Source: an uncultured Spirochaetales bacterium (GTDB lineage: Bacteria; Spirochaetota; Spirochaetia; JABMQR01). Taken from it: a stretch of 24,267 nucleotides of DNA. A model generated the notes under the pieces. It did no database searches, was not told where the DNA came from, and saw nothing but the letters and a program-made list of their open reading frames with translations. Where the stretch lies: assembly GCA_964433385.1 (NCBI GenBank), contig CAYSRK010000298.1:1-24267 (forward strand), read 5' to 3'. The translations under genes were made by a program, and so were the position numbers. Positions 2,517-21,723 of the stretch are shown piece after piece (position 1 is the first letter of the stretch; every line of letters starts with the position of its first letter).

Positions 2517-3548
2517 CTACGGCGCCGCTGCGGTGGACTTCCTGATAATAAGATCAACCGGAAACTTCTTGACCACCCGATTCTGATACTCACGCTCGAT
2601 CCTCTCAAGAATCAGTTTTCCGGCCTGCATTCCGATACTGTAGGCTGGGGGACCGATGGTAGTCAGCGGCGGGTTGAAGGATTCGCTGCCCGGCTCGTTG
2701 TTGAACCCGATAACCGAAATGTCATCAGGGACCGAGAGTCCGGCAGCGTAGGCGCTTCCGATCACTCCCATCGCCATCGTATCAGTTATCGCAAAGACTA
2801 CTGTGGGACGGGGGTTCAGGCGAAGCAGATCTTCCATGGCATGCCAGCCTCCGGCGGCAGTCCAGTCGCCCTGCCTGAAGTAATCCTGCGGCACATTGAT
2901 GGCAAGCTCGTCCAGGATTCTCCTGATCAGCTCGACCCGCATGCGGGCGTGAACTGACCGTTCATACCCGGTAACTATCCCGAAATTCCGGTGGCCGAGG
3001 TTTATGAGGTGTGAGAAGGCGGTCTTTATGCCGTGGTAGGCGTCTATGAGGAACATGTTGATATGTTCGTGGGGAATATCCCGGTCAATAACCAGCACCT
3101 CCGTGCTGTTTTTGAAGATTTCGAACGGAATGTCATGTTCGCTGCTGCCGACCGAACCGACGTAGACGATTCCGCTGACCCGCTGCCGTACAAGGGCCTT
3201 GCTGATCTCAATCTCCTCAAGCGGATCCTCCTGGGAGCTGCAGATGATGACCTCGTAGGGCGAATCCTTCATGGCGTCGTAAAAACCGCGGGTTATCCGC
3301 GCAAACGCGAGATTTGAGAAGTTCGGGACGACCATTGCAAGGAGATTGCTCTTGGCTGTCTGCAGACCCCGAGCTATCAGGTTGGGATGGTAGTTAAGCG
3401 TCTGAATCGACTCCTGAATCTTCCGGAGGGTTTTCTCTTTCACCTTTTCCGGATGGTTGATCGCCCGCGAGACGGTTGAAGCGTCCACTCCGACACTTGA
3501 TGCGATATCCTTCAGAGTGACCGGGGATGCTGCCTTTCTACTTTTCAT
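2517..3548 (-). CDS. LacI-family transcriptional regulator
   Basis: HTH VTLKDIASSVGVDASTVSRAIN, hinge YHPNLIARGL, periplasmic-binding-like effector domain ending PPLTTI...LIIRKST. Start set at the ATG at 3548 (MKSRK); the ORF-track start at 3590 is possible but less likely. Confidence 0.93.
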   Translation of the reverse strand: MKSRKAASPVTLKDIASSVGVDASTVSRAINHPEKVKEKTLRKIQESIQTLNYHPNLIARGLQTAKSNLLAMVVPNFSNLAFARITRGFYDAMKDSPYEVIICSSQEDPLEEIEISKALVRQRVSGIVYVGSVGSSEHDIPFEIFKNSTEVLVIDRDIPHEHINMFLIDAYHGIKTAFSHLINLGHRNFGIVTGYERSVHARMRVELIRRILDELAINVPQDYFRQGDWTAAGGWHAMEDLLRLNPRPTVVFAITDTMAMGVIGSAYAAGLSVPDDISVIGFNNEPGSESFNPPLTTIGPPAYSIGMQAGKLILERIEREYQNRVVKKFPVDLIIRKSTAAAP

Positions 3549-3670
3549 ACACAGCCTACAAGGAAGAAGATCGTACTGCCGCAGCCGCAAAGCGCTGCCG
3601 GTTTAAACAGGGCGGAACCCCTGCCGCTCAGAGCAGTGCGTAAGACTGCCCTGAATCGTCATAATGATCA

Positions 3671-3699
3671 ATATTACCCGCGGCGGGACTCTTGCGCAA
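3671..3699 (-). promoter_or_regulatory. Predicted sigma70 promoter of the lacI-family gene
   Basis: Minus strand TTGCGC-N17-TAATAT. Confidence 0.55.
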
Positions 3700-3714
3700 T
3701 CCTCTCTGCCGGGT

Positions 3715-4749
3715 TTACCAAATGTAATGTTCGAGCGAACGGACTTTGCAGATCAGCTTCGGAAGCCGGTCGATGGTGACAAAACCCGGGGGCGCGTTTA
3801 TGACGTCCGGGATCCGGTTGACAATCTGGGAACTCGTTCCGAGCAGCGTGGGCGGATTGTCGTTGCGCATATGGATCTCGGGAACCCCCCTGATGTACCA
3901 CTCATTGAAGTCGACCTCGCCCTCATCGTAGGCCCTGCCGGTCATAGTACCCTTGAAGAGAATACCTTCAGCTGTATCGATTTCTATAGTGATATCGAGA
4001 CCGATGACATCCCCGGGAGGAATCATGGTGCCGCGGCTGCGGCAGGGAACGGCGTGGTCTCTCGTAAGCGGCGTGACGATTTTCCGGAAGGCTTTCGGCG
4101 TCAGTCCGAGCTCGGCTATCTGGTTCTCTAGGTCCATCCGCAGAAAGTCGACCTCGTCCCCGATGGGGAACTTCTCGCCCGCATCGATCATCGCCTGGAT
4201 CTCATCCAGCTTGCGGCCGACGGCGTAGAAGCCGGCCACCATCTCTCCAAGCGCGTCGACGTTCACGCTTACCTGTCCCTCGATCGCATCTATCCTCTGC
4301 GAAGCGCCGGTCAGGTGGGTCACAATCGTAGCCCAGAAGATATCCTGCATGCCTGACCCGGTCACGGTCACCCCGTTTTCCTTGGCAATCCGGTCAAGCT
4401 TCGCGGTAACGGTGGGGGAGGCTGTCCAGGGATAGGAGGCTTCCTCTGATGTCGTTATCACATTCAGTCCTGCCTCAAGGCACTTTTTGACATGGGGATA
4501 GATGATATCCATCGATGTGGCAAGAGCCATGAGCGCGATATCGGCTCCCGTCTCCGCCAGGACGGCGTCAACATCATCCCTGATGCATACGTTGAGCTTG
4601 CGGTCAAGCCCGAGCACATCGCCTAAATCCTCGCCCACGTGGGTTATGTCTACAGCATCGGTAATGATGACTCCTTTTTCCAGCATGAACCGGGCAATAT
4701 CCTTGCCTACCGTCCCCGCTCCATATACCAGTGCCTTTACTTTCTCCAT
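3715..4749 (-). CDS. NAD(P)-dependent amine dehydrogenase (native AmDH / 2,4-diaminopentanoate dehydrogenase Ord-like family)
   Basis: N-terminal Rossmann YGAGTVG; ITTSEEASYPW with Glu102; VTVTGSGMQDIFW; C-terminal NDNPPTLLGTSSQIVNRIPDVINAPPGFVT typical of the family; RBS AAGGAG. Confidence 0.8.
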   Translation of the reverse strand: MEKVKALVYGAGTVGKDIARFMLEKGVIITDAVDITHVGEDLGDVLGLDRKLNVCIRDDVDAVLAETGADIALMALATSMDIIYPHVKKCLEAGLNVITTSEEASYPWTASPTVTAKLDRIAKENGVTVTGSGMQDIFWATIVTHLTGASQRIDAIEGQVSVNVDALGEMVAGFYAVGRKLDEIQAMIDAGEKFPIGDEVDFLRMDLENQIAELGLTPKAFRKIVTPLTRDHAVPCRSRGTMIPPGDVIGLDITIEIDTAEGILFKGTMTGRAYDEGEVDFNEWYIRGVPEIHMRNDNPPTLLGTSSQIVNRIPDVINAPPGFVTIDRLPKLICKVRSLEHYIW

Positions 4750-4773: not shown

Positions 4774-4787
4774 TACAAACGATTGGA
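4774..4787. promoter_or_regulatory. LacI-type operator O1
   Basis: TACAAACGATTGGA, a pseudo-palindrome with central CG, just downstream of the predicted AmDH -10. Confidence 0.6.
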
Positions 4788-4791
4788 TTTA

Positions 4792-4820
4792 ATAGTACAC
4801 CGTTTGCACGATGATGTCAA
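4792..4820 (-). promoter_or_regulatory. Predicted sigma70 promoter of the amine dehydrogenase; its spacer and -10 overlap operator-like site O2 (4795-4808, GTACACCGTTTGCA)
   Basis: Minus strand TTGACA-N17-TACTAT, near consensus. Confidence 0.75.
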
Positions 4821-4918
4821 ACGAAAAGCGCCCCTGCGCCGCCGTCTTCATAAGGCTAATATTAAGCATTTACATGAAAAACAGTTGTCTGCAAAACAGA
4901 AGAGCATTCGCTGTTTTT

Positions 4919-4948
4919 GCCACCCTGCTCCCTGGAAAGCAGGGTGGC
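4919..4948. repeat. Perfect 11-bp inverted repeat in the divergent promoter region
   Basis: GCCACCCTGCT-CCCTGGAA-AGCAGGGTGGC. Confidence 0.7.
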
Positions 4949-4978
4949 CGGAACACGCTTTTTATGAGCGCTTTCAGT

Positions 4979-5007
4979 TTGTCAAACGAGGGGAAGTGTG
5001 GTATGAT
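4979..5007 (+). promoter_or_regulatory. Predicted sigma70 promoter of the corrinoid protein-mttB-RACo operon
   Basis: TTGTCA-N17-TATGAT with an extended -10 (TGn). Confidence 0.72.
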
Positions 5008-5020
5008 TACCTGAAAAAAA

Positions 5021-5034
5021 AGCAAACGTTTGTA
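5021..5034. promoter_or_regulatory. LacI-type operator O3
   Basis: AGCAAACGTTTGTA with a perfect core CAAACGTTTG, a few nt downstream of the predicted +1. Confidence 0.7.
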
Positions 5035-5082
5035 CAAAGCTTCACCGGTTCCGCTCTGCGGTACGGCGAAGGAGGAGAAGGA

Positions 5083-5733
5083 TTGAAGGAACAGCTGTTT
5101 GCCGAACTGGCAGAAACCGTGCATACTTTTGACAGAGAGCGGGCTGAGAAGCTCGCGTTAGAGAGTATCGCTGCGGGAATAGACCCGTTGGAGACGCTTG
5201 AGGCGCTCACAAAGGCGATACGGGAGATCGGGGACCTCTACGATTCCGGGGAGGTGTTCCTGCCCGAGCTGATAGCCGCCTCAGAGGTAACCTCGGCTGC
5301 ATCGGCCCCGCTGGAAGCGGAAATTGAGCGGTGCAACATGAAGAAGCAGAGCATGGGCCGGGTCGTCATCGGGACGGTGTTCGGCGATATCCATGACATC
5401 GGAAAGAACATGGTTGCGACGCTGCTGCGGGCATCGGGTTTTGATGTGTACGACTGCGGAACGAACGTAAAGTCCGATCTCTTCATAGAGCGCATCCGCA
5501 GGGAACAGGCCGACCTGCTGGCCCTCTCCGCCCTGCTCACCACTACTGCCGAGGAGCAGCGCAGGACCATATCCGCTCTGAAGGAGCAGGGGCTGAGGGA
5601 CACGGTCGGTATCATGGTCGGCGGCGGAGGGATTACAAAGAAGTTTGCCGACGACATCGGGTCTGACGGGTATGCGGCAACCGCCTCAGGAGCGGCAGCG
5701 CTCGCGAAAAAGCTCTTAGGCCTCGCTGACTGA
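5083..5733 (+). CDS. Corrinoid (cobalamin-binding) protein, MttC/MtbC-like
   Basis: N-terminal cap domain; GTVFGDIHDIGKNMV (DxHxxG), SALLTTT, IMVGGG. TTG start at 5083 after AGGAGGAG. The ORF-track extension to 4639 runs through the promoter region and overlaps the AmDH gene. Confidence 0.93.
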   Translation: MKEQLFAELAETVHTFDRERAEKLALESIAAGIDPLETLEALTKAIREIGDLYDSGEVFLPELIAASEVTSAASAPLEAEIERCNMKKQSMGRVVIGTVFGDIHDIGKNMVATLLRASGFDVYDCGTNVKSDLFIERIRREQADLLALSALLTTTAEEQRRTISALKEQGLRDTVGIMVGGGGITKKFADDIGSDGYAATASGAAALAKKLLGLAD

Positions 5734-5770
5734 GGTCTTTGACCGGCAACAGAAAAGAAGGAGTTACGGC

Positions 5771-7213
5771 ATGGGAAGAAGGGGAGTGGAACCGGTTATT
5801 GCCCCGGTTGAGATGCTGAGCGCCGATCAGGCGGAACAGGTGCACCGGGCAACGCTGCGGGTCCTTGAGCGGACCGGGGTGAAGATGGAGCACCCCGAGG
5901 CGCTGAAACTGCTGGGAAGGCACGGCTGCACAGTTGATGGGGAGTCCATGCTGGTGAAGTTTCCTCCGGAACTGGTCGAGGAGTGCCTGAAGCTGGTTCC
6001 CCAGCGCTACACCGTCACTGCCGCGCTTGAGGAACATGCACTGGAGTTCTCCACCGAAAGACTCTACTTTACCCATACCTCGGGCATGCAGTCGGTCGAC
6101 CTTGAGACGATGGAGCAGAAAGTTCCCGACAAGGGAGAGTATATCGAGGCCATTCGGGTCCTTGATGCGCTTGAGACAATCGATATGCTCGGCTGCTACC
6201 CCTACTTCGGGTTTGAGGGAACCGAGTCCAAAATGGAGATCCCGGCCGGGGTGGCGCTCAACCTTACCTACTGCGGAAAGCATCAGGCGGCTGCCTGTTC
6301 CAACGATTCTGAACTGTTCACCTTCCAGATGGCTGAAGCGGCCGGGCAGGAGGTTTCGGCCACAATCGGTTCTTCTCCCCCGCTTACCTGGGGGGAGAAG
6401 GCGATAGAATCGGCCTTCCGCATAGCGAAAGCCGGATATCCTCTCTCCACGGTAGACGGTGCCATGATGGGCGGGACCGGGCCGGCAACCCCCATCGGTT
6501 CGGTGGTTATGAGCAATGCGGAGCAGATGGCCATGATAGTGCTGACTCAGCTGCTCAGTCCGGGGCACCGGATGCTCATAGGCCACTTCTCCGCCCCGTT
6601 GAATATGAGGACCGGGTCCCCCGCCTTCGGTCAGATAGGAGCCTCTATCAGCAACACCCTCTTCAACCAGATGTGGCGCCGCTACCGAATTCCGTTCAGC
6701 AACGGCAGCCCGGGTTACGTCAACGCCAAGACGATCGACTACCAGGCCGGGTATGAGAAGGGGATAGCCGGCATCCTTTCCGGCCTCTCGGGAGCGAGCC
6801 TTATGCTTTTCCACTTCGGTGTCTCAAGCGAAGTCAGCGCCCATCCGCTCCAGGCGGTCCTTGATGACGATGTTGCCCGGATGATAGCGCGCTTTCTGCG
6901 TGGTGAAGAGATCAGCGAGGAGACGATTGCCGAGGAGCTGATCAACGAGGTCGGGCCTATTCCCGGTCACTACCTCAGCCGGCCGCACACGATGAAGTGG
7001 TTCAGGAGAGAACAGTGCATTCCCAAATCAGCCGACACCCTCACCTACGCCGACTGGATTGAGAAGGGTAAAAAAACGGCGAGGGACTATGCCCTTGAGC
7101 GAATGCAGGCCATTCTGGCTGCCCCGGAGAAGATCTATCTCAGTTCCGGTCAGCTTGCCGACATCGAAAAAATACTTGAGGATGCCCGCCGCTACTACAG
7201 GAACCGGGAATGA
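5771..7213 (+). CDS. mttB: Trimethylamine methyltransferase (MttB) superfamily protein, pyrrolysine-free
   Basis: N-terminal LSADQAEQVHRATLRVLERTGV; GPATPIGSVVMSNAE; NAKTIDYQAGYEK; C-terminal INEVGPIPGHYLSRPHT...W; no in-frame TAG; RBS AAGGAG. Confidence 0.88.
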   Translation: MGRRGVEPVIAPVEMLSADQAEQVHRATLRVLERTGVKMEHPEALKLLGRHGCTVDGESMLVKFPPELVEECLKLVPQRYTVTAALEEHALEFSTERLYFTHTSGMQSVDLETMEQKVPDKGEYIEAIRVLDALETIDMLGCYPYFGFEGTESKMEIPAGVALNLTYCGKHQAAACSNDSELFTFQMAEAAGQEVSATIGSSPPLTWGEKAIESAFRIAKAGYPLSTVDGAMMGGTGPATPIGSVVMSNAEQMAMIVLTQLLSPGHRMLIGHFSAPLNMRTGSPAFGQIGASISNTLFNQMWRRYRIPFSNGSPGYVNAKTIDYQAGYEKGIAGILSGLSGASLMLFHFGVSSEVSAHPLQAVLDDDVARMIARFLRGEEISEETIAEELINEVGPIPGHYLSRPHTMKWFRREQCIPKSADTLTYADWIEKGKKTARDYALERMQAILAAPEKIYLSSGQLADIEKILEDARRYYRNRE

Positions 7214-9081
7214 ATACCTCCGGCCAGCGGCAGTCCAGGCGTTTCACCGTTGTTCCCGACGGTGCAAAGACGCTCCTCACGCTGCTCAATGCCCAGGGGG
7301 CGGACATACAGGCGCCCTGCGGCGGGCTTGGAGTCTGCGGAAAGTGTATCGTCCGCATACTATCAGGCTATGCGGGTGAGCCTGAGAGCGCCGAGCGGGT
7401 ACTGCTCTCCGCACAGCAGCTCTCCCAGGGGTTCAGGCTCGCCTGCAGAACCGCGGTTCACGAACCGCTGGAGGTCGAGGTTCCCCATTCCGTGGCTGAA
7501 ACTGCGGGAAAGGGGCGCTTGAGGGTACGGGGAAGCCGGGGAAGCGGTGGCGGCTGGACGGAGAAGCGGGCTGTCCTTCTTGATGAGCCGCAGCTCGGCA
7601 GCCGGGAGTCGGAGCTTGCCCGCCTGAGACGCGTTATTCCCGGGCTTTCGGCGCAGGTCGATCCTGCAGCTGTCGCTGAACTCGCTGCGGCGCTTACAGT
7701 CGGCAGAACCGTCACCGCCGTAACGGCAGCCGGTGAAGCCGGGCAGCAGCAGCTCCTCGGGTGCGAAGCCGGCGATACCTCCGGAATCCTTCTCGGCTGT
7801 GCCGTCGATATCGGGACTACCACCGTGGCTGTCTATTTGGCTGACGTCAGGAGGCAGACTGTCATCGGTTCACTGTCGCAAGCCAATCGGCAGGGCCGCT
7901 TCGGAGCTGATGTCATCTCACGGATTGATCAGTTCAGCCGCGAAGGCGGGACTGAACTGACCAGCCTCGTCCGAACCCAGGTCCGGACCATGATCGAAAC
8001 GCTCTGCAGCCGCTGCAGCGCGGAACCTCGCCAGGTATACTCCGTAGTCTGCGTAGGAAACCCCGCCATGCTGCACCTGTTCATCGGGGCTGACCCGTCC
8101 GGAATTGCCCTGGCCCCCTTCACCCCGGTTTTTACCGAACAGCTGCTGTTTCCTGCCCGCACGTTCGGGCTCGGAGTAAGCCCTGCGGCAGCGGTCTGTC
8201 TGCTGCCGGGCGTATCAGCGTATATCGGATCTGATATCACCGCAGGCATCTTCTCAAGCGGGATGGATGAGGAGGAGGGGCCTGTCATGCTTATCGATAT
8301 CGGGACAAACGGTGAAATGGTGCTTACCCGCGGTGATGCCTACTGGACCTGCTCTACCGCCGCCGGCCCGGCTTTCGAGGGGGCTCGCATTCACTGCGGC
8401 TGCGGAGGCGAGGCGGGCGCGGGTGACTCGTTCTTCCTGGATGAGGAAGGCAACTGCTTATTCACCACAATTGGGGGAGAGGCTCCAACCTGCATCTGCG
8501 GGGCAGGCCTGGTCGATATCGCAGCCGCCCTGCTGAGGGCGGGAATAGTGGACCGGCGCGGAAAGCTTCGAGGTTTCAGCGAGTGGTCAGAGCATGCCGC
8601 CGCCCCCGATGAGTATAAGCGGCGGCTCTCATCCCGCTGGACCGAATACCAGGGCAAGGCGGCATGGACTGTAGTTCCTGAAACCGGGATCATCATTACC
8701 CAGAAGGATATCCGTGAGCTGCAGCTCGCCAAGGCAGCGATTGCCGCCGGCATCGAGATACTGCTCAAGGAGGCGGGTATAGAACCTGAATTGCTGCAGA
8801 AGCTGTACATAGCCGGCGGGCTCGGAAGCTCTATTCGCAGGGAGAGTGCCGCATCGATCGGGCTCTTTCCCGCCGGCCTGCTGGAGAGAACCGCAGCGCT
8901 CGGCAGCTCAGCCGGTTCGGGCGCGGTCTCAGCGCTCCTTGATCCCGGTTCCTTCTCCCAAAGTTACTTCCGCTGCTCCGCTGCAGCCTATATCGAACTC
9001 TCGGCCCGTCCCGATTTCTCCCGGATCTTTGCCCAAAGCATGTTCTTCCCGCCGCAGGAGCCGGAGGCTACTCCGGCATAA
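7210..9081 (+). CDS. ASKHA-type ATP-dependent corrinoid reductive activase (RACo/DUF4445) with an N-terminal [2Fe-2S] domain
   Basis: APCGGLGVCGKC...RLAC; VDIGTTTV; IDIGTNGE; STAAGPAFEG; ITQKDIRELQLAKAAI; ATGA overlap with mttB. Confidence 0.92.
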   Translation: MNTSGQRQSRRFTVVPDGAKTLLTLLNAQGADIQAPCGGLGVCGKCIVRILSGYAGEPESAERVLLSAQQLSQGFRLACRTAVHEPLEVEVPHSVAETAGKGRLRVRGSRGSGGGWTEKRAVLLDEPQLGSRESELARLRRVIPGLSAQVDPAAVAELAAALTVGRTVTAVTAAGEAGQQQLLGCEAGDTSGILLGCAVDIGTTTVAVYLADVRRQTVIGSLSQANRQGRFGADVISRIDQFSREGGTELTSLVRTQVRTMIETLCSRCSAEPRQVYSVVCVGNPAMLHLFIGADPSGIALAPFTPVFTEQLLFPARTFGLGVSPAAAVCLLPGVSAYIGSDITAGIFSSGMDEEEGPVMLIDIGTNGEMVLTRGDAYWTCSTAAGPAFEGARIHCGCGGEAGAGDSFFLDEEGNCLFTTIGGEAPTCICGAGLVDIAAALLRAGIVDRRGKLRGFSEWSEHAAAPDEYKRRLSSRWTEYQGKAAWTVVPETGIIITQKDIRELQLAKAAIAAGIEILLKEAGIEPELLQKLYIAGGLGSSIRRESAASIGLFPAGLLERTAALGSSAGSGAVSALLDPGSFSQSYFRCSAAAYIELSARPDFSRIFAQSMFFPPQEPEATPA

Positions 9082-10423
9082 CGGCGTCTATGCGCTCCTG
9101 AAGCGCCTCCCGGCTGGGAATGATGGAGGAGAAGGCGAGCTCTCCGTTGATATAGATGCTCGGCAGCTGCGTCACCCGCATCTTCTGTGCCCTGACGATA
9201 TTCTCCATCGAAGCAGAAGCCTTGTACTCCACTACATCGATACGGTCACCGTAGGTCTCCTTCGCATCCATGGCAGACTGGTACATGTAGGTGCAGGCGG
9301 CGCAGGTGACTGAATCTATGGTGAAGACCTCGATAAGCGGACGTTCAAGAGCACCGTAGTCGGGCAGGCTCACCGCAATATCCTGACTCTGCCGCTCGTA
9401 CCCGGCGATCAGGCGGCGGGTCTGCTCAGTTTGGTGAACCGCCTGTTCGCAGCCGACGCAGTTTTCCACAGGGGTATCGTAGGGCATATCGCACCCGGGG
9501 GAGATGATCAGATTCCGATGGTCTACGGCGTCGAGCTCATCAATGACGACTTTCATATTGTCCTGCTGGCTGCCGAAGAGCATGACTGAGGCGAGCGGGA
9601 TATTGCCGCCGAGGACGACGTTATAGCGGTCGGTTACCGCTTTGGTCGCGGCGAAATCGAGGTTTTCATCCACGGAAATACCGTCAGGCTCGGTTCTGCA
9701 CATGACTTCTATGTTTTTCGTCGCATCCCCGCAGACGAAGAAGCTGGAAAACCGTCCGAGTTCCCGGATACGGGAGTGGAGCTTCAGGTAGGGTTCGTGC
9801 ATGAACTGGGTGAAGTGCTTCGGCGATATCTGGGAAATAAGCGGATCAACCGGGGCAAGAATGTCGGCGCCGGCTTCAGCGTAGTACTCTGCCATAGCGA
9901 CGGCAATCTCTGTGGTCCAGCTGAGCAGCCGGGTCACATAATCGGGGTCCTTGATGAAATCCATGAAGATGTTCGTTCCCCGCAGGTGGGAGGCAAGGGT
10001 AAAGGGACCGCAGAAGAGACCGTAGATGGCCGTCGTGTCCCCGACTGCCTCGCTGAGCGCTTTTGCAGCAGCAAGGGCAAGCGGAATGCGCCCGGCCTCC
10101 CGGCTTGGGATACTGTCCGGAATATCCTTGCCGGAGGAGAGCGGATGGGTGGTCACTGTGGCAGGGGAGTCCTTTGCCCACATGAGATCACAGCCGAGAG
10201 CCTCTGCTTCGATCTGCAGATCAAACATGACCGTCTGTCCGTCAGGCCTGTAAAGCTGGTGCGCCTTCAGCAGCGCCCGGTTCAGGGTCTCAAGTTTTGT
10301 GTAGACCTCCTGCGCATCGGCGCCGATCAGTTTTCCGGCATGCACGCCGGCAAACGGTACCCAGGGAACTGCATCGGCCTGTTCATGTCTGAATACCGCA
10401 TATATACGTTCCTTTCCTGTCAT
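9068..10423 (-). CDS. MtaA/CmuA (uroporphyrinogen decarboxylase fold) methyltransferase-family protein fused to a C-terminal thioredoxin-like domain
   Basis: UroD-fold motifs FDLQIEAEALG, GPFTLASHLRG, FFVCG, GGNIP, ISPGCDMPYDTPVEN. The last ~100 aa read EVFTIDSVTCAAC...VTQLPSIYING, a thioredoxin/glutaredoxin pattern with CxxC and cis-Pro. RBS AAGGAG. Confidence 0.85.
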   Translation of the reverse strand: MTGKERIYAVFRHEQADAVPWVPFAGVHAGKLIGADAQEVYTKLETLNRALLKAHQLYRPDGQTVMFDLQIEAEALGCDLMWAKDSPATVTTHPLSSGKDIPDSIPSREAGRIPLALAAAKALSEAVGDTTAIYGLFCGPFTLASHLRGTNIFMDFIKDPDYVTRLLSWTTEIAVAMAEYYAEAGADILAPVDPLISQISPKHFTQFMHEPYLKLHSRIRELGRFSSFFVCGDATKNIEVMCRTEPDGISVDENLDFAATKAVTDRYNVVLGGNIPLASVMLFGSQQDNMKVVIDELDAVDHRNLIISPGCDMPYDTPVENCVGCEQAVHQTEQTRRLIAGYERQSQDIAVSLPDYGALERPLIEVFTIDSVTCAACTYMYQSAMDAKETYGDRIDVVEYKASASMENIVRAQKMRVTQLPSIYINGELAFSSIIPSREALQERIDAVMPE

Positions 10424-10479
10424 CTTCTGCTCCTTGTACTGCTGTTCCTACAGGCAGTGTACGGCATCTGGGGGAAAAA

Positions 10480-10493
10480 TGCAAGCGTTTGTA
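10480..10493. promoter_or_regulatory. LacI-type operator O4, upstream of the MtaA-like gene
   Basis: TGCAAGCGTTTGTA, matching O1 and O3. Confidence 0.65.
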
Positions 10494-10555
10494 TTAATGT
10501 TCAGCAAAATAGTCAGATTAGTATTATCGGGGTGCAGTAATGAATTGTTTCTTAC

Positions 10556-10569
10556 ATCAATCGATTGTA
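10556..10569. promoter_or_regulatory. LacI-type operator-like site O5
   Basis: ATCAATCGATTGTA with a perfect core CAATCGATTG. Confidence 0.5.
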
Positions 10570-10570
10570 A

Positions 10571-11122
10571 TTATACGGACTGCGGCGGCTGAGGGGTGAG
10601 CAGTTTTTCAAAGAGTCCTGATATGACTTCAGTTACTGCCTCCTGTGAAGGGTCGGTACGGAATCCTCCCGCCTCCCGGTAGGCCCGGTCGGGAGTGAGC
10701 CCGCCTTTGATCGCGTTGACCTGGCGAGTGAACGCCTGATCCTCCCCGAGAATGTGGGTAATCAGCCAGCTTGATAGGAATGCGAGTACGTCGACCATGC
10801 CGTTTCCTTGACCGCTGCGCAGAGAGTGGAAGCAGATGTCGATTTTCCTGATGAAACTGAGGTGGGCAGCCTTATGCCGGGAGGCTGACTGCACGGCGAT
10901 ATCGAGAAGATCCATCCACTCCTCTTCGGTTCTGAAGTGGGTATCGGCAAACTCTGTGAGCCGCTCCCGCAGCTTCTCCGTCTGAGAAGCGGAGGAACTG
11001 CTGCCGGATGCAGCAAGGCCTGCTGCATCATTGAGGATCTCTATGAGGCTCCGGTGCTGCGCATCAACTAAGGCTATCCCTGTTTCCAGAACAGGATTCC
11101 AGCTGATAATCTCTTTAGTCAT
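10571..11122 (-). CDS. Bacteriohemerythrin (stand-alone)
   Basis: W...ETGIALVDAQH; THFRTEE (HxxxE); HKAAH (HxxxH); WLITHILGED (HxxxxD). All di-iron ligands are present. 8-bp overlap with the kinase stop. Confidence 0.92.
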   Translation of the reverse strand: MTKEIISWNPVLETGIALVDAQHRSLIEILNDAAGLAASGSSSSASQTEKLRERLTEFADTHFRTEEEWMDLLDIAVQSASRHKAAHLSFIRKIDICFHSLRSGQGNGMVDVLAFLSSWLITHILGEDQAFTRQVNAIKGGLTPDRAYREAGGFRTDPSQEAVTEVISGLFEKLLTPQPPQSV

Positions 11123-14100
11123 GACTCTCGTACTCCCCTGAGGATTTCCGTATCAGATTCTGCACAAGATCAACCGCCTTCTGATATTCATACCGGCTCA
11201 GCGCCCTGCCCAATGAGGAGGCGGCGCTGCCGAAGAGTGCGCTGAACAGGGTGCTGTTTTCTTCAAAAACCGCATTGGAGGAGGTGTCGTTTTTTTCCAG
11301 CAGCGCCACGAAGCGGCTGAGCAGCGGCTGGTGCTCCTCTATCAGGTGCGGGTCACCCTGAGCGGCAGGGGTAGCCGGCTGCTCGAGCGGGGGAGGCAGT
11401 ATCGGCGCCAGGGAGGCGACCATCCGGTTGAAATCAGCGATGAAGCCAAAGACAAGCGGAGAGAGCTCCTCCGCCTCGGCACCGCCAGCGATACTGTTCT
11501 CAAGCACCCCCGCAGCTTCCGAAAGCACACGCATGCCCAGGGTCCCGGTGAGCGATCTCAGGTTGTGCACAAACCCGCGCAGGGAGGGGTAATCTCCCTC
11601 CCTGAAAGAGGCCTCCATCAGTTCCCCGTCTTTTTCGTGTTTCCTGAAGAACTGCTCGACCATTTTGCGGTAAAGCTGGGCATCTACCATCAGATACTTG
11701 AGGCCGCAGACGGTATCTATACCGGGAATCTGCTGCAGCCGGGAGAGAAGTTCCCCGGCAGGCTCAGGGTTCGCCGCGGTCGGTTCTGGGTCAGATGCCG
11801 CTTCAGCAGTCTTTTCCTTCAGGGGATCGGCAGCAGGAAGCCAGGCAAGAAGCCGTTCGTAGAGAACCTCCGGTTCCACTGGTTTGCTGATGTGATCGTT
11901 AAGACCGGCATGTATGCTCTCCTGCATATCTTCGGAGAATGCCTGAGCTGTCATGGCAAGAATGGGAACCGAATCCCAGCCCGGAAGGGTGCGGATGATC
12001 TTTGTCGCTTCATACCCGTTTATTCCCGGCATCCTGATATCCATGAGCACCAGGTCGTAGCGCTTAGCCCTTGCCAGTTCAACGGCCTCACGTCCGTTGG
12101 ATGCCACATCGGGCCGTATGCCGGCACCCCGCAGAAGCTGGCAGGCAAGTTCCTGGTTGATCTCATTGTCTTCGACCAAGAGCACTGACACGTTCCCGGC
12201 GGCTGCTTTCAGCCGCTCCGCCATGCGGTGTTCCCGACCGTCCTTATCCTGCTCCTCCGCGCTCTGCTCAGGGAGCACTCCCTCACGGCGTCGGGTTTCA
12301 ACGGAGCGTTCGGGCGGCAGGGGAAGGGTGAAAGGAATTTCCAGGATAAACTCCGAACCGGCGCCCTCCACGCTCTCGACGGTTATGGATCCGCCCATTA
12401 TCTCCGCCAGTCGCCTGCTGATGGCAAGCCCGAGTCCGGTTCCCCCGTAGCGGCGCGAGGCGGAGCTGTCACCCTGCTCGAAGGCCTGAAACAGGGTCTT
12501 AACGATATCAGGGGAAATGCCGATGCCCGTATCCTGTACACTGAACTGCAGCAGGATACGCTCCTTATCCTGTGAGAGAACCCGGCCTTTCACCCGTACA
12601 CTGCCGGCATCGGTGAATTTCACAGCATTTGAGACGAGGTTGAGCAGTATCTGGGAGAACCTTCGCCCGTCTCCGACAACCGCTTTCGGGATGCTGAGCG
12701 TGCTGGCCGAGAGATCGAGACCCTTCAGGTGGGCCTGTTCGGAAACGATTTCCAGGACCCGGCTGACTGTTTCGGCGGGATTGAAGCTCTCCTCAATCAG
12801 GGTCATCTTGTCGGCGTCGATTTTTGAGACATCAAGGATGTCATTGATGACTTTCAGGAGGGGAGCAGCGGAGCTGAGCAGCTTCTTGAGCTTCTCCCCC
12901 TGGCTCACAGGCAGCGGATCCTGCTGCATCAGGTAGGCGTATCCGAGAACAGCGTTCATCGGGGTACGGATCTCATGGCTCATGTTGGCCAGGAAGGTGC
13001 TTTTCGCCCTGTTCGCAGACTCGGCCTTCTCCCTTGCCCGTTCGAGCTCCCTCGTACGTGAGGCAACTATCTCCTCAAGGTGGAGCCGGTACTCATCAAG
13101 CGTGCGGGTGGTTTCCATGACGTCAGTTATGTCATGAATGATCCCCAGGACAGCCTCAGGAGTCCCTTCATCGTCAAACTGCGACTCGCCCTGCAGTTCC
13201 GCCCAGCGGGTATGCTCTCCCTGGAAAAAACGGCTGGTTATCTTGAACGGGACCCCGCCGAGAGCTCCCTCCCAAGCCCGGACGAGAGCGGGCAGGTCTT
13301 CCGGGTGGATGTAACGCGGGAAGAGGTCGGCATGGATTTCCCGCTGCCGCGGGATGCGGAATATATTCCGCGCTTCTTCAGATATGAAAAGCGTATCTTC
13401 CTTGATATCGTAGTACCAGTGTCCCGTGTGAGAAATTGCCTGCGCCCGCTCGAGAAACTTCTCATTGCGGCGCAGCGCTTCAACAGCGGTCTGCCGCTCG
13501 CGGTTGAGCAGCACTATGCTGATCTGGTCGGCAAACTGTCCGGCGAAGGTCTTCTCATCATCCTTCCACACTCTCTGGGATTCGAGGGTCGAGAGGATGA
13601 ACACCCCCCTCAGCCTGCCGCCGAAGGCTATCGCTGAGAAGAGCACCGAAGAGATTCCCTGGGAGAGTAAAAAATGGTTCTTGAAGGTTTCGTTCATGCC
13701 GGTGAAGCGGGGGATGTCTGTAACGGCGATCGTCCTGTTCTCGATGAGCGAGTCGAAATTGATGGAGAAAGTATCAAGCTTGACATCGGGAAGGCTTCTG
13801 TGCAGGGCATTCCGCGGTTCATAGATGTCGCTGCAGACGGCGCTGCGATTGTCTTCGCTGAACATCCAGATCGAAATCCGGTCAACGGCAAAGACCTCGG
13901 CGAGCATCTCGGTCAGCTTCGGGGAGATGGTGCCGCCTGGCCTGTTTTCACGTTCGGCCTCAGCAACCGCGGCAAGTATTTTCGGATAGGTCTTAAGCCT
14001 TCTGAGGTAGGCTGCCTGCTCCCTCTCCTGCCGCTCCGTTCTGGTGATATCACGCCAGGTGGCGTGTATCAGGAGGTTTCCGTGATGCATGATCGGCTGG

Positions 14101-15548
14101 ACTGCGACATTCACGATCCGCAGCCTGCCGTTTTTTGTCCGGTGACGGGTCTTGAATGCCTGTAAGCGGCCCTCAGGAATCGCTTCAAGGTGCTTCCTGA
14201 CCTCATCCGGGGACTGAAGAGCGTCCACGTCTTTAATGCAAAGCCGCAGGAACTCCTTCCGGGTGTATCCAAGCCGCCGGCACGCATTTTCGTTGCAGTC
14301 GATAAACCGGCCTGTTTCCGGTTCCATGAGAGCAATGGAATCCCGCGATAACTGGTAGATTGTATTCAGCAGCAGCTCCCGTTCCTTGAGACTCTCCAAG
14401 GCCGCCTTCCGTTCGATCACAGCAGCAATCCCATCGGTGATTGCGACAAGCAGCTCAAGCTCCTCCGGCAGGAGGAGCTCCCGATGCCTGTCGGTTCTCC
14501 CTTCTGCTGCGGACACGGCGACGGTGAGCGTCTTCCCGGTGGCGGGTCTGCGTTCAGCCGAATAGAGCACAGCTGAGGCATCGAAGCCGGCAGTACGGTT
14601 TTGTCTGTGCGCATAGGATATTTGCGCTTCCAGTTCCGAGGGCTTGCACAGCCCGTCATGCAGGGCTTCAAGCGCTGCCGAACAGAGTTCATCCAGGGAA
14701 CGCTCAACCTGGGCAGAAGCCATGAAACGGTACAAGGCTTCCTGGCGAACGATATGGCGCTTCAGCATGAGCTGCTCATCCTCGAGCGCCGCCTTGGTCC
14801 GCTTCAGTTCATCAATATCGCTGATGCTGGCAATGACCGCCCTCTGCCCTTCGTAGGTGATGATTGAAGCGGTTATCAGGAGCCAACGCCATGAGGCATC
14901 AGCAGAATGATAGTGTATTTCCCAATTGACCACCCGCTGTTTCCGCTCAAGATTCTCTAAAAGTGCGATGATCTGCGGATTGCTTCGAATCTGTTCAACC
15001 AGATTCGCATAGACATCAGGAGCCGATACGTGAAATGTCTCCTCGCACTGCCTGTTCATGTAGAGGGGTTTTCCGTCCTCAAGGCTGATGATCAGGATCG
15101 GGAAGGGGGCTGTGTCAAGCAGGTCTTGCTGCCTCCGCTCACTGTCGCTGAGTTTTCTGTTTGCGGTGACAATGTCGGTAACATTCCTTACAAGCGCATA
15201 GACCAGCCCTGAGGGGGCATGGGCATGCATCCTTGCCTCGTAGTGACGCTCCTCCCCATCCTTGGGAAGGGTATAGTTGAAGCTGACGGTTTCATTGCCC
15301 TGCAGAGCACGTTCAAAACTGTCGACAAACGTCTCCCTGAGATGGGACAGCAGGATGCTCTCCAACGGTCTGTTGAGAAAGCTGTCCGGATCCGTGAAGA
15401 GCTGTGAGGCATCCCGTGCGCGGTAATCGATGATCCTGCGCTGCCGGTCGAGAACGAAAAAGAGGTCGGGAATCAGGGTGAACAGGTTCTCAAACATGGC
15501 GACGGACGCCCCGGACTGTTCTCGATCTTTACTGCCTTCAGAACTCAT
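11115..15548 (-). CDS. Cytoplasmic hybrid sensor histidine kinase (about 4 PAS/PAC + GAF, HisKA, HATPase, REC, Hpt)
   Basis: H-box FLANMSHEIRTPMN; N-box QILLNLVSNAVKFT; G1 DTGIGI; G2 GGTGLGLAIS; REC LLVEDNEINQ...LMDIRMP...KP; Hpt VHNLRSLTGTLG; no obvious TM helix. Confidence 0.93.
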   Translation of the reverse strand: MSSEGSKDREQSGASVAMFENLFTLIPDLFFVLDRQRRIIDYRARDASQLFTDPDSFLNRPLESILLSHLRETFVDSFERALQGNETVSFNYTLPKDGEERHYEARMHAHAPSGLVYALVRNVTDIVTANRKLSDSERRQQDLLDTAPFPILIISLEDGKPLYMNRQCEETFHVSAPDVYANLVEQIRSNPQIIALLENLERKQRVVNWEIHYHSADASWRWLLITASIITYEGQRAVIASISDIDELKRTKAALEDEQLMLKRHIVRQEALYRFMASAQVERSLDELCSAALEALHDGLCKPSELEAQISYAHRQNRTAGFDASAVLYSAERRPATGKTLTVAVSAAEGRTDRHRELLLPEELELLVAITDGIAAVIERKAALESLKERELLLNTIYQLSRDSIALMEPETGRFIDCNENACRRLGYTRKEFLRLCIKDVDALQSPDEVRKHLEAIPEGRLQAFKTRHRTKNGRLRIVNVAVQPIMHHGNLLIHATWRDITRTERQEREQAAYLRRLKTYPKILAAVAEAERENRPGGTISPKLTEMLAEVFAVDRISIWMFSEDNRSAVCSDIYEPRNALHRSLPDVKLDTFSINFDSLIENRTIAVTDIPRFTGMNETFKNHFLLSQGISSVLFSAIAFGGRLRGVFILSTLESQRVWKDDEKTFAGQFADQISIVLLNRERQTAVEALRRNEKFLERAQAISHTGHWYYDIKEDTLFISEEARNIFRIPRQREIHADLFPRYIHPEDLPALVRAWEGALGGVPFKITSRFFQGEHTRWAELQGESQFDDEGTPEAVLGIIHDITDVMETTRTLDEYRLHLEEIVASRTRELERAREKAESANRAKSTFLANMSHEIRTPMNAVLGYAYLMQQDPLPVSQGEKLKKLLSSAAPLLKVINDILDVSKIDADKMTLIEESFNPAETVSRVLEIVSEQAHLKGLDLSASTLSIPKAVVGDGRRFSQILLNLVSNAVKFTDAGSVRVKGRVLSQDKERILLQFSVQDTGIGISPDIVKTLFQAFEQGDSSASRRYGGTGLGLAISRRLAEIMGGSITVESVEGAGSEFILEIPFTLPLPPERSVETRRREGVLPEQSAEEQDKDGREHRMAERLKAAAGNVSVLLVEDNEINQELACQLLRGAGIRPDVASNGREAVELARAKRYDLVLMDIRMPGINGYEATKIIRTLPGWDSVPILAMTAQAFSEDMQESIHAGLNDHISKPVEPEVLYERLLAWLPAADPLKEKTAEAASDPEPTAANPEPAGELLSRLQQIPGIDTVCGLKYLMVDAQLYRKMVEQFFRKHEKDGELMEASFREGDYPSLRGFVHNLRSLTGTLGMRVLSEAAGVLENSIAGGAEAEELSPLVFGFIADFNRMVASLAPILPPPLEQPATPAAQGDPHLIEEHQPLLSRFVALLEKNDTSSNAVFEENSTLFSALFGSAASSLGRALSRYEYQKAVDLVQNLIRKSSGEYESHD

Positions 15549-21698: not shown

Positions 21699-21723
21699 CA
21701 GGGTGTATCGCGAAAGATACAAT
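21695..21723 (+). promoter_or_regulatory. Near-consensus sigma70 promoter of the BMP gene; the -35 overlaps the pdp stop codon
   Basis: TTGACA-N17-TACAAT; contains the inverted repeat TGTATC-N6-GATACA at 21704-21721. Confidence 0.8.

Follow-up and report, generated by a model that had tools for sequence, protein, structure and literature searches.

The window analysed here is contig C298 (24,267 nt) of a metagenome-assembled genome (MAG) of an uncultured Spirochaetales bacterium, labelled G000 in the comparisons below. It encodes a LacI/GalR-family regulator (hereafter LacI) at 2517-3548 on the minus strand, and a conserved palindrome is found at the promoters of three transcription units: an amine dehydrogenase (AmDH) gene (site O1), an operon for a corrinoid protein, an MttB-family methyltransferase and a RACo-type reductive activase (site O3), and an oppositely oriented gene for an MtaA-thioredoxin fusion (site O4). 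As judged from sequence comparisons, these three sites, plus a weaker one (O5), are very probably binding sites of the adjacent LacI-type repressor, and it is likely that O1, O3 and O4 serve as operators through which this protein represses the three units. At least six transcription units, in a reconstructed island of about 47 kb reaching over two further contigs, are predicted targets of the same LacI, about twice the regulon outlined in an earlier note on this DNA.

Probable operator sites and promoters in the window

The earlier note had listed five LacI-type operators, and all five strings are present, at 4774, 4795, 5021, 10480 and 10556; O1, O3 and O4 stood as strong sites, whereas the one at 10556 (O5) is weak and that at 4795 (O2) is a half-site. 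When the pattern TRCAAWCGWTTGYA was searched with up to two mismatches, five matches were detected in the window against 0.49 expected, a number reached in none of 100 shuffles. These matches are O1, O3, O4, O5 and a string at 21718, O2 not matching the pattern. Scores were obtained with a symmetrised matrix of 18.8 bits built from 18 sites in five genomes, including O1, O3 and O4 of the window and both sites of contig C5; O2 and O5 were left out, so that they were scored independently. The core motif is TRCAAaCGtTTGYA, with C7 and G8 invariant in the 18 training sites, which makes it an even palindrome with a central CG, extending to about 20 bp with its A/T flanks. The match at 21718 (TACAATGGATTGTG), located before a Bmp gene, was rejected as chance, with a score of 6.2 bits and no central CG. 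The Bmp proteins that follow perfect sites in the related genomes G061 and G062 are just 25% identical to the Bmp protein of the window, their true orthologue being encoded on contig C255.

O1 (TACAAACGATTGGA, 4774-4787, 18.3 bits) lies on the start site of the AmDH(-LacI) transcript. Two near-consensus divergent promoters had been proposed for this region, and both were called by the promoter scan with 10 of 12 matches each. The AmDH promoter (4820-4792, minus strand) consists of a -35 box TTGACA (4820-4815), a 17-nt spacer and a -10 box TACTAT (4797-4792), and O1 starts 4 nt past the latter, with its centre 31 bp upstream of the AmDH start codon. Both boxes are kept in the alignment with the related loci L038 and L039, as is the position of the operator, found before AmDH at 9718 in L038 (24.2 bits) and at 5425 in L039 (21.6 bits). 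No promoter or terminator was predicted in the 166-bp gap between AmDH and LacI (3549-3714), which are on the same strand, so that LacI is probably co-transcribed with AmDH and autoregulated through O1.

O2 (GTACACCGTTTGCA, 4795-4808), which occupies part of the spacer and the -10 box of the AmDH promoter, scored -3.2 bits, with a perfect right half (12.0 bits) and a left half of -15.2 bits. The 8-mer of this perfect half-site occurs 38 times in the genome, and no counterpart of O2 was found in the upstream alignments of L038 and L039. O2 is a right half-site alone and probably not an operator.

The second scanned promoter (4979-5007, plus strand; TTGTCA, 17 nt, TG-extended TATGAT) serves the corrinoid protein-MttB-RACo operon, and its -35 box is kept in L039, L040 and L041. 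O3 (AGCAAACGTTTGTA, 5021-5034, 21.6 bits) starts 13 nt past the -10 box, covering about +7 to +20, its centre being 55 bp upstream of the corrinoid protein's start codon. Counterparts before the orthologous operons, also downstream of the -10 box, were detected in L039 (5178), L040 (9664) and L041 (435). The 10-mer TGTCAAACGA does occur at both -35 boxes (4815 and 4980), as had been pointed out, but its conservation in orthologous promoters is limited to TGTCAA, which corresponds to the -35 box. It was rejected as a regulatory element, and on this comparison the repeat is read as the -35 box plus four chance bases.

O4 (TGCAAGCGTTTGTA, 10480-10493, 21.6 bits) coincides with the promoter of the MtaA-thioredoxin gene in such a way that its TTGCA arm on the minus strand is the -35 box. 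A putative -10 box TACACT (10456-10461, minus strand), read by eye, lies 17 nt downstream of TTGCAT (10484-10479), and the same arrangement of TTGCA operator arm, 17 nt and a TAnAnT box is present in the window and upstream of the orthologous genes in L084 (TATAAT) and L085 (TATACT). In these two upstream regions O4 is the best-conserved island.

O5 (ATCAATCGATTGTA, 10556-10569, 14.0 bits, rank 11 in the genome) begins directly after the stop codon of a hemerythrin gene, at 76 bp from O4. About 8e-4 sites as good as O5 are expected in its 147-bp spacer, and by this measure it is unlikely to be pure chance locally. No counterpart was found upstream of the MtaA-thioredoxin gene in L084 and L085. 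O5 may be a weak extra or auxiliary operator or, since no terminator was predicted at the end of the hemerythrin gene beside it, a roadblock against hemerythrin read-through, although both proposals are speculative.

Distribution of the motif and its probable assignment to LacI

An orthologue scan with one genome per species yielded four Spirochaete MAG loci (L038-L041), in which the LacI orthologues are 61-71% identical to that of the window and the synteny of binding protein, permeases and LacI is shared. L039 also has the AmDH and corrinoid-MttB-RACo arrangement of the window; AmDH is missing from L040 and L041, which have the corrinoid-MttB genes, and the latter genes are missing from L038, which has AmDH. 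In upstream alignments with a mean identity of 55-58%, the operators and the -35 and -10 boxes appear as conserved islands. In addition to the sites before AmDH and the corrinoid protein-MttB operon described above, the motif is present before the binding-protein gene (L038 14611, L039 11321, L040 14535, L041 5306), before a divergent second corrinoid protein with an MtmB-like gene (L038 14879, L039 11596, L041 5563) and on the promoter of the LacI gene itself (L038 9957). A site upstream of the binding-protein gene, outside the window, had been anticipated in the earlier note, and it was found on C5 at 2087.

Orthologues of the MtaA-thioredoxin gene are present in all four related genomes, and the upstream comparison covers those with the two most similar proteins, G061 and G062, where a site is located 80-95 bp upstream of the gene in L084 (78% identity, 20.4 bits) and L085 (73%, 22.2 bits). 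For G063/G064, just 44 bp of contig lie upstream of the gene in L086, and the L087 copy is intra-operonic, after a corrinoid-protein gene. Perfect sites were also detected before the orthologue of a Zn-dehydrogenase/kinase operon (L096) and before orthologues of the Bmp-type binding protein of C255 (L097, L100). The motif is conserved in all the orthologous loci just named, and the claim that one operator links AmDH, the MttB operon and the MtaA-thioredoxin gene is supported at sequence level, with the motif before the orthologues of all three and rare genome-wide.

In six genomes of the same family no orthologue of LacI was found (best match 34% identity), and no orthologue of MttB was found in the same six. 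LacI and its target genes thus seem to appear and disappear together across genomes, a correlative observation. A search for LacI in 60 relatives gave paralogue-level matches alone (up to 34% identity), and a scan of metagenome contigs for more LacI orthologues gave nothing above 52% identity, that value being over a fragment. DNA matching the window was detected by a sequencing-run search in aquatic and freshwater-sediment metagenomes, there in the form of assembled contigs, with a small share in one RNA run.

When the whole G000 genome was scored, nine sites reached at least 18 bits, against 1.2 expected from the exact score distribution, and six reached at least 20 bits, against 0.28 expected. 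Between 14 and 18 bits there was no genome-wide excess, scores dropping from 18 to 15 bits or less. Five of the nine strong sites are training sites, with scores that are partly fitted. Seven of the nine fall in the island: 4774, 5021 and 10480 on C298, 1812 and 2087 on C5 (a pair 275 bp apart) and 5289 and 5431 on C255 (a pair 142 bp apart). The other two are at 2187 on C300 and at 11132 on C382. The motif is thus not frequent genome-wide, and its distribution is that predicted for a local regulon, not for a global one of the CcpA kind.

That the palindromes are cre-like sites of a CcpA-type global catabolite regulator in general carbon control is, for this reason, extremely improbable. CcpA is a global regulator with many sites that requires HPr-Ser-P as corepressor. 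The nearest solved structures of LacI are indeed CcpA-DNA complexes, and the motif resembles, from general knowledge, the cre pattern. However, tens to hundreds of strong sites would be expected of a global regulator instead of nine concentrated mostly in one island, the seven and six matches with at most one mismatch in G061 and G062, respectively, are mostly at the same locus (four in each at the locus or before MtaA-thioredoxin), and the NCBIfam ccpA model (TIGR01481) gave LacI a score of 184 bits versus a cut-off of 442.

The LacI protein itself has the expected architecture, with matches to PF00356 (55 bits) and to PF13377 (Peripla_BP_3, 103 bits), that is, a helix-turn-helix, a hinge and a periplasmic-binding-protein-like effector domain. 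The open reading frame list gave it as 2517-3590, but its start is probably ATG 3548 (343 aa) and not TTG 3590, which would be 14 codons too early, because all four orthologues begin at that Met. The alignment of LacI with CcpA 1rzr (E 7e-51) spans the whole length and takes in the ARGL hinge. LacI also aligns with the PurR and LacI structures, and its scores are far below every equivalog cut-off (for RbsR, 197 vs. 382 bits). The recognition-helix and hinge signature STVSRxINHPE, ARGLQT is common to LacI and its four orthologues, and the 11 other LacI-type helix-turn-helix regions found in G000 all lack it. It is also present in homologues of 35-38% identity from MAGs of Bacillota and Fusobacteria, and in most of these a perfect TGCAAACGTTTGCA stands beside the LacI gene.

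Such homologues with TGCAAACGTTTGCA are those of L043 (9983-15445), L042, L044-L046 and L072. In L043, the one neighbourhood looked at, TGCAAACGTTTGCA is 27 bp before an acyl-CoA dehydrogenase/ETF/crotonase/nitroreductase operon, from which it appears that this LacI clade also controls non-sugar targets, at least in L043.

An alternative assignment is that the sites are real LacI-family operators bound by a paralogue, either alone or together with the local LacI, whose own motif would then be different and undetected. The genome has 12 LacI-type helix-turn-helix matches, motifs of this class are typical of the family at large (Ravcheev et al. 2014, PMC4052901), and the good sites on C300 and C382 lie away from the local LacI. 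Against this, the motif travels with the local LacI orthologues in four other genomes and clusters around the gene, the L038 site at 9957 sits on the promoter of the LacI gene, distant homologues that share the recognition helix share the core motif too, and the paralogues differ in recognition-helix and hinge residues. Binding by a paralogue is therefore regarded as unlikely, and the LacI encoded at 2517-3548 remains the favoured candidate.

Several points weigh against this assignment and against the regulon built on it. Besides the number of LacI-type proteins in the genome, TGNAANCGNTTNCA-like motifs are common across the family; related genomes without a LacI orthologue show a few pattern matches, which makes cross-talk with paralogues possible; and two of the strong sites, C300 2187 and C382 11132, fall outside the island. 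The consensus promoter scan did not call the MtaA-thioredoxin promoter, O5 scored at the level of the genome background, and neither O5 nor O2 is conserved. Also, the five genomes are kin, with L040 and L041 near-identical, and so amount effectively to four independent lineages, and G000 is an uncultured MAG of 2.70 Mb in 413 contigs, with a completeness of just 78.6%.

Regarding the pattern matches in relatives, counts in 30 of these genomes were mostly 1-10 per genome, compared to 0-9 for a control, and are not discriminating. The C382 site (TGGAAACGTTTGCA), with G at position 3, is of a type that recurs in five relatives without a LacI orthologue, and on this basis probably belongs to another LacI-family regulator. 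On C382 (L003, 11132-11155), the palindromes TGGAAACGTTTGCA and TGCAAAAGATTGCA overlap with an offset of 10 bp; they follow a TTGACA-17-AATAAT promoter and precede a gene for a ribose-type binding protein. The site on C300 (20.1 bits) has GC-rich flanks and no counterpart beside the AraC orthologue in L038. In that locus (G061, L038 1588-8636) AmDH adjoins an AraC regulator, a second sugar-type ATP-binding cassette (ABC) system and a GH38 alpha-mannosidase, and orthologues of its AraC and binding proteins (77-78% identity) are encoded on C300 beside site 2187. A 12-bit copy, ATCAAACGATTGGA, about 140 bp inside the LacI coding region at L040 10142 and L041 913, is probably due to chance.

The reconstructed island and its predicted transcription units

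The contigs C255 (L001), C5 (L004) and C298 abut in that order, as is evident from an MtmB-like gene and a binding-protein gene that are split across contig ends, and their order and orientation match those of L039. The end of C5 matches residues 41-309 of the binding-protein orthologue of L039, and the first bases of the window match residues 320-434, with about 10 residues missing. In the same way, the start of C5 and the end of C255 match residues 1-358 and 387-465, respectively, of the MtmB-like protein of L039, with about 28 missing. From these alignments, the three contigs are taken as one island of about 47 kb.

The transcription units of this island that are predicted to be under LacI control number at least six. 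The first comprises AmDH (3715-4749, minus strand), probably with LacI itself, behind O1. Gene calls in the window were made by Pfam scans, in which AmDH was detected by DAP_DH_C as a 2,4-diaminopentanoate-dehydrogenase-like protein; its score with the NCBIfam model Ord, 131 bits, does not reach the cut-off of 400. The second unit, behind O3 (5083-9081, plus strand), consists of the corrinoid protein with a TTG start (5083-5733), the non-pyrrolysine MttB-family methyltransferase without in-frame stop (5771-7213) and the RACo-type activase (7210-9081), a synteny kept in L039 and L040. Genes for Gfo/Idh/MocA and short-chain dehydrogenases precede the corrinoid-MttB genes behind site 5178 in L039, the Gfo/Idh/MocA gene being co-operonic. 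The third unit is the MtaA/URO-D-like methyltransferase fused to a thioredoxin-like domain (9068-10423, minus strand; called with Pfam and NCBIfam), a target of O4 (and O5). It is followed in the window by genes for the hemerythrin (10571-11122) and a hybrid histidine kinase (11115-15548), both on the minus strand.

The fourth unit includes the sugar-type binding protein, whose 3' end is at 3-353 of the window, and two permeases (479-1642 and 1642-2496), all on the plus strand; its operator, C5 2087, and its promoter are on C5. The fifth unit includes the second corrinoid protein and the non-pyrrolysine MtmB-like methyltransferase; a Bmp-type ABC transporter probably belongs to it as well. The MtmB-like gene is made up of L004 3-1076 and L001 19114-19350, both on the minus strand, and has an intact orthologue at L039 12319-13716; this MtmB-family methyltransferase is full-length (Pfam positions 4-450 of 450), has no in-frame stop and adjoins its own corrinoid protein.

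The sixth unit (C255, 5472-14423, plus strand) has eight genes behind two operator copies, encoding, in this order, a Zn-dehydrogenase, an FGGY kinase, an amidohydrolase, a second Zn-dehydrogenase, an FTR-like protein, an aldo-keto reductase, a URO-D-like protein and a 314-aa protein without family match. In L039, the counterparts of the genes for the aldo-keto reductase and the URO-D-like protein lie next to the second corrinoid operon, which ties this unit to the same system. The FTR-like protein is homologous to formylmethanofuran-tetrahydromethanopterin formyltransferase, with 174 bits, a score that falls short of the NCBIfam cut-off; such a gene is odd in a sugar-type operon of a Spirochaete. 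The distal operator of this unit (C255 5289-5302), identical to O4, begins on the base that follows the stop codon of the upstream MatE gene. Both this copy and O5 begin directly after the stop codon of the upstream gene, and are possible roadblock sites.

Proposed mode of repression and comparison with known systems

In the proposed mechanism, a LacI dimer would bind each site by its helix-turn-helix plus the hinge helix at the central CG, and the bound repressor would block RNA polymerase at the promoters of O1, O3 and O4 until released by an effector, for which the imported substrate or one of its early breakdown products is the probable candidate. The positions of the sites fit such steric repression: O1 and the operator of the second corrinoid operon, which abuts its -10 box, lie on the start site, O3, the binding-protein operator and C255 5431 lie just downstream of it, and O4 lies on a -35 box. 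Site centres are 31-140 bp upstream of start codons, which lies inside the interval given in the literature for more than 75% of the sites in the LacI family (PMC4052901).

Looping had been offered as a possibility in the earlier note, and a tetrameric repressor acting in this way jointly at all five sites, O2 and O5 included, could account for the pairing of sites (O1/O3 247 bp apart, O4/O5 76 bp, and the C5 and C255 pairs at the spacings given above) and for a weak upstream site also present in L097. Nevertheless, most pairs correspond to one operator per divergent promoter, O2 and O5 lack conservation, and LacI ends where the dimeric CcpA and PurR end: its residues 10-339 align to residues 3-331 of the 332 of CcpA, with four residues left past the alignment, and E. 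coli LacI (360 residues) aligns up to residue 331 only, which means that the tetramerisation helix is absent here. Since the protein has no tetramerisation tail, looping is unsupported, and we consider it very unlikely; repression by dimers at individual promoters is preferred.

The proposed mechanism is of the ordinary LacI type, and the value lies in the map of the regulon. LacI/GalR local repressors have been catalogued by comparative genomics, an even palindrome with a central CG being the rule in the family (PMC4052901). The present system resembles them (the nearest named being RbsR, CytR, PurR and CcpA) in domain architecture, in the CG-centred even palindrome, in the positions of the sites and in having the regulator gene inside its own regulon, with probable autoregulation. 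With the CcpA-cre complexes (PDB 1rzr, 3oqm; the closest structures) it shares the full-length alignment, the ARGL hinge and the dimer type without C-terminal tail, but not the size of the regulon, which is local here, with nine strong sites. Among LacI-family groups with an assigned pathway, 96% control carbohydrate use (PMC4052901). The targets predicted here depart from that norm, as they include MttB- and MtmB-family corrinoid systems, an amine dehydrogenase and an MtaA-thioredoxin fusion, although the regulon also holds sugar-type transport, dehydrogenase and kinase genes.

Characterised non-pyrrolysine systems are MtgB, for glycine betaine, and MtqB/MtqC, for tetramethylammonium and choline (PMC13044021), the first function of a non-pyrrolysine MtmB homologue (MtqB) having been reported in 2026 (PMC13044021). 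The island encodes homologues of their methyltransferase and corrinoid-protein components, plus a gene for a RACo-type activase, here with a candidate LacI-type operator. In literature searches, no published LacI-type operator on MttB, MtmB or MtgB operons was found.

What the units would do together can be proposed only tentatively. The island, patchily distributed in Spirochaetes, may encode an undescribed anaerobic pathway in which an N-methylated amino-sugar or amino-polyol, or a quaternary-amine conjugate, would be imported, demethylated step by step, deaminated and phosphorylated, and that compound would be the effector. This possible pathway would place under one sugar-type repressor two orphan methylamine-type corrinoid systems (MttB and a non-pyrrolysine MtmB) and the MtaA-thioredoxin fusion, together with a native amine dehydrogenase, polyol/sugar-type dehydrogenases, an FGGY kinase and two ABC importers.

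To our knowledge, substrates have been established for a minority of the MttB superfamily and for almost none of the non-pyrrolysine MtmB homologues, and native amine dehydrogenases mostly lack a known physiological role. The conserved operator groups such enzymes with a sugar-type importer, dehydrogenases and a kinase, which yields a list of genes open to testing by cloning and expression, and it unites three contigs of a fragmented MAG in a single locus. It would also be a second case of a LacI-family member with non-classical targets. LacI itself is a sensor that can be purified, and its ligand would name the substrate of the pathway.

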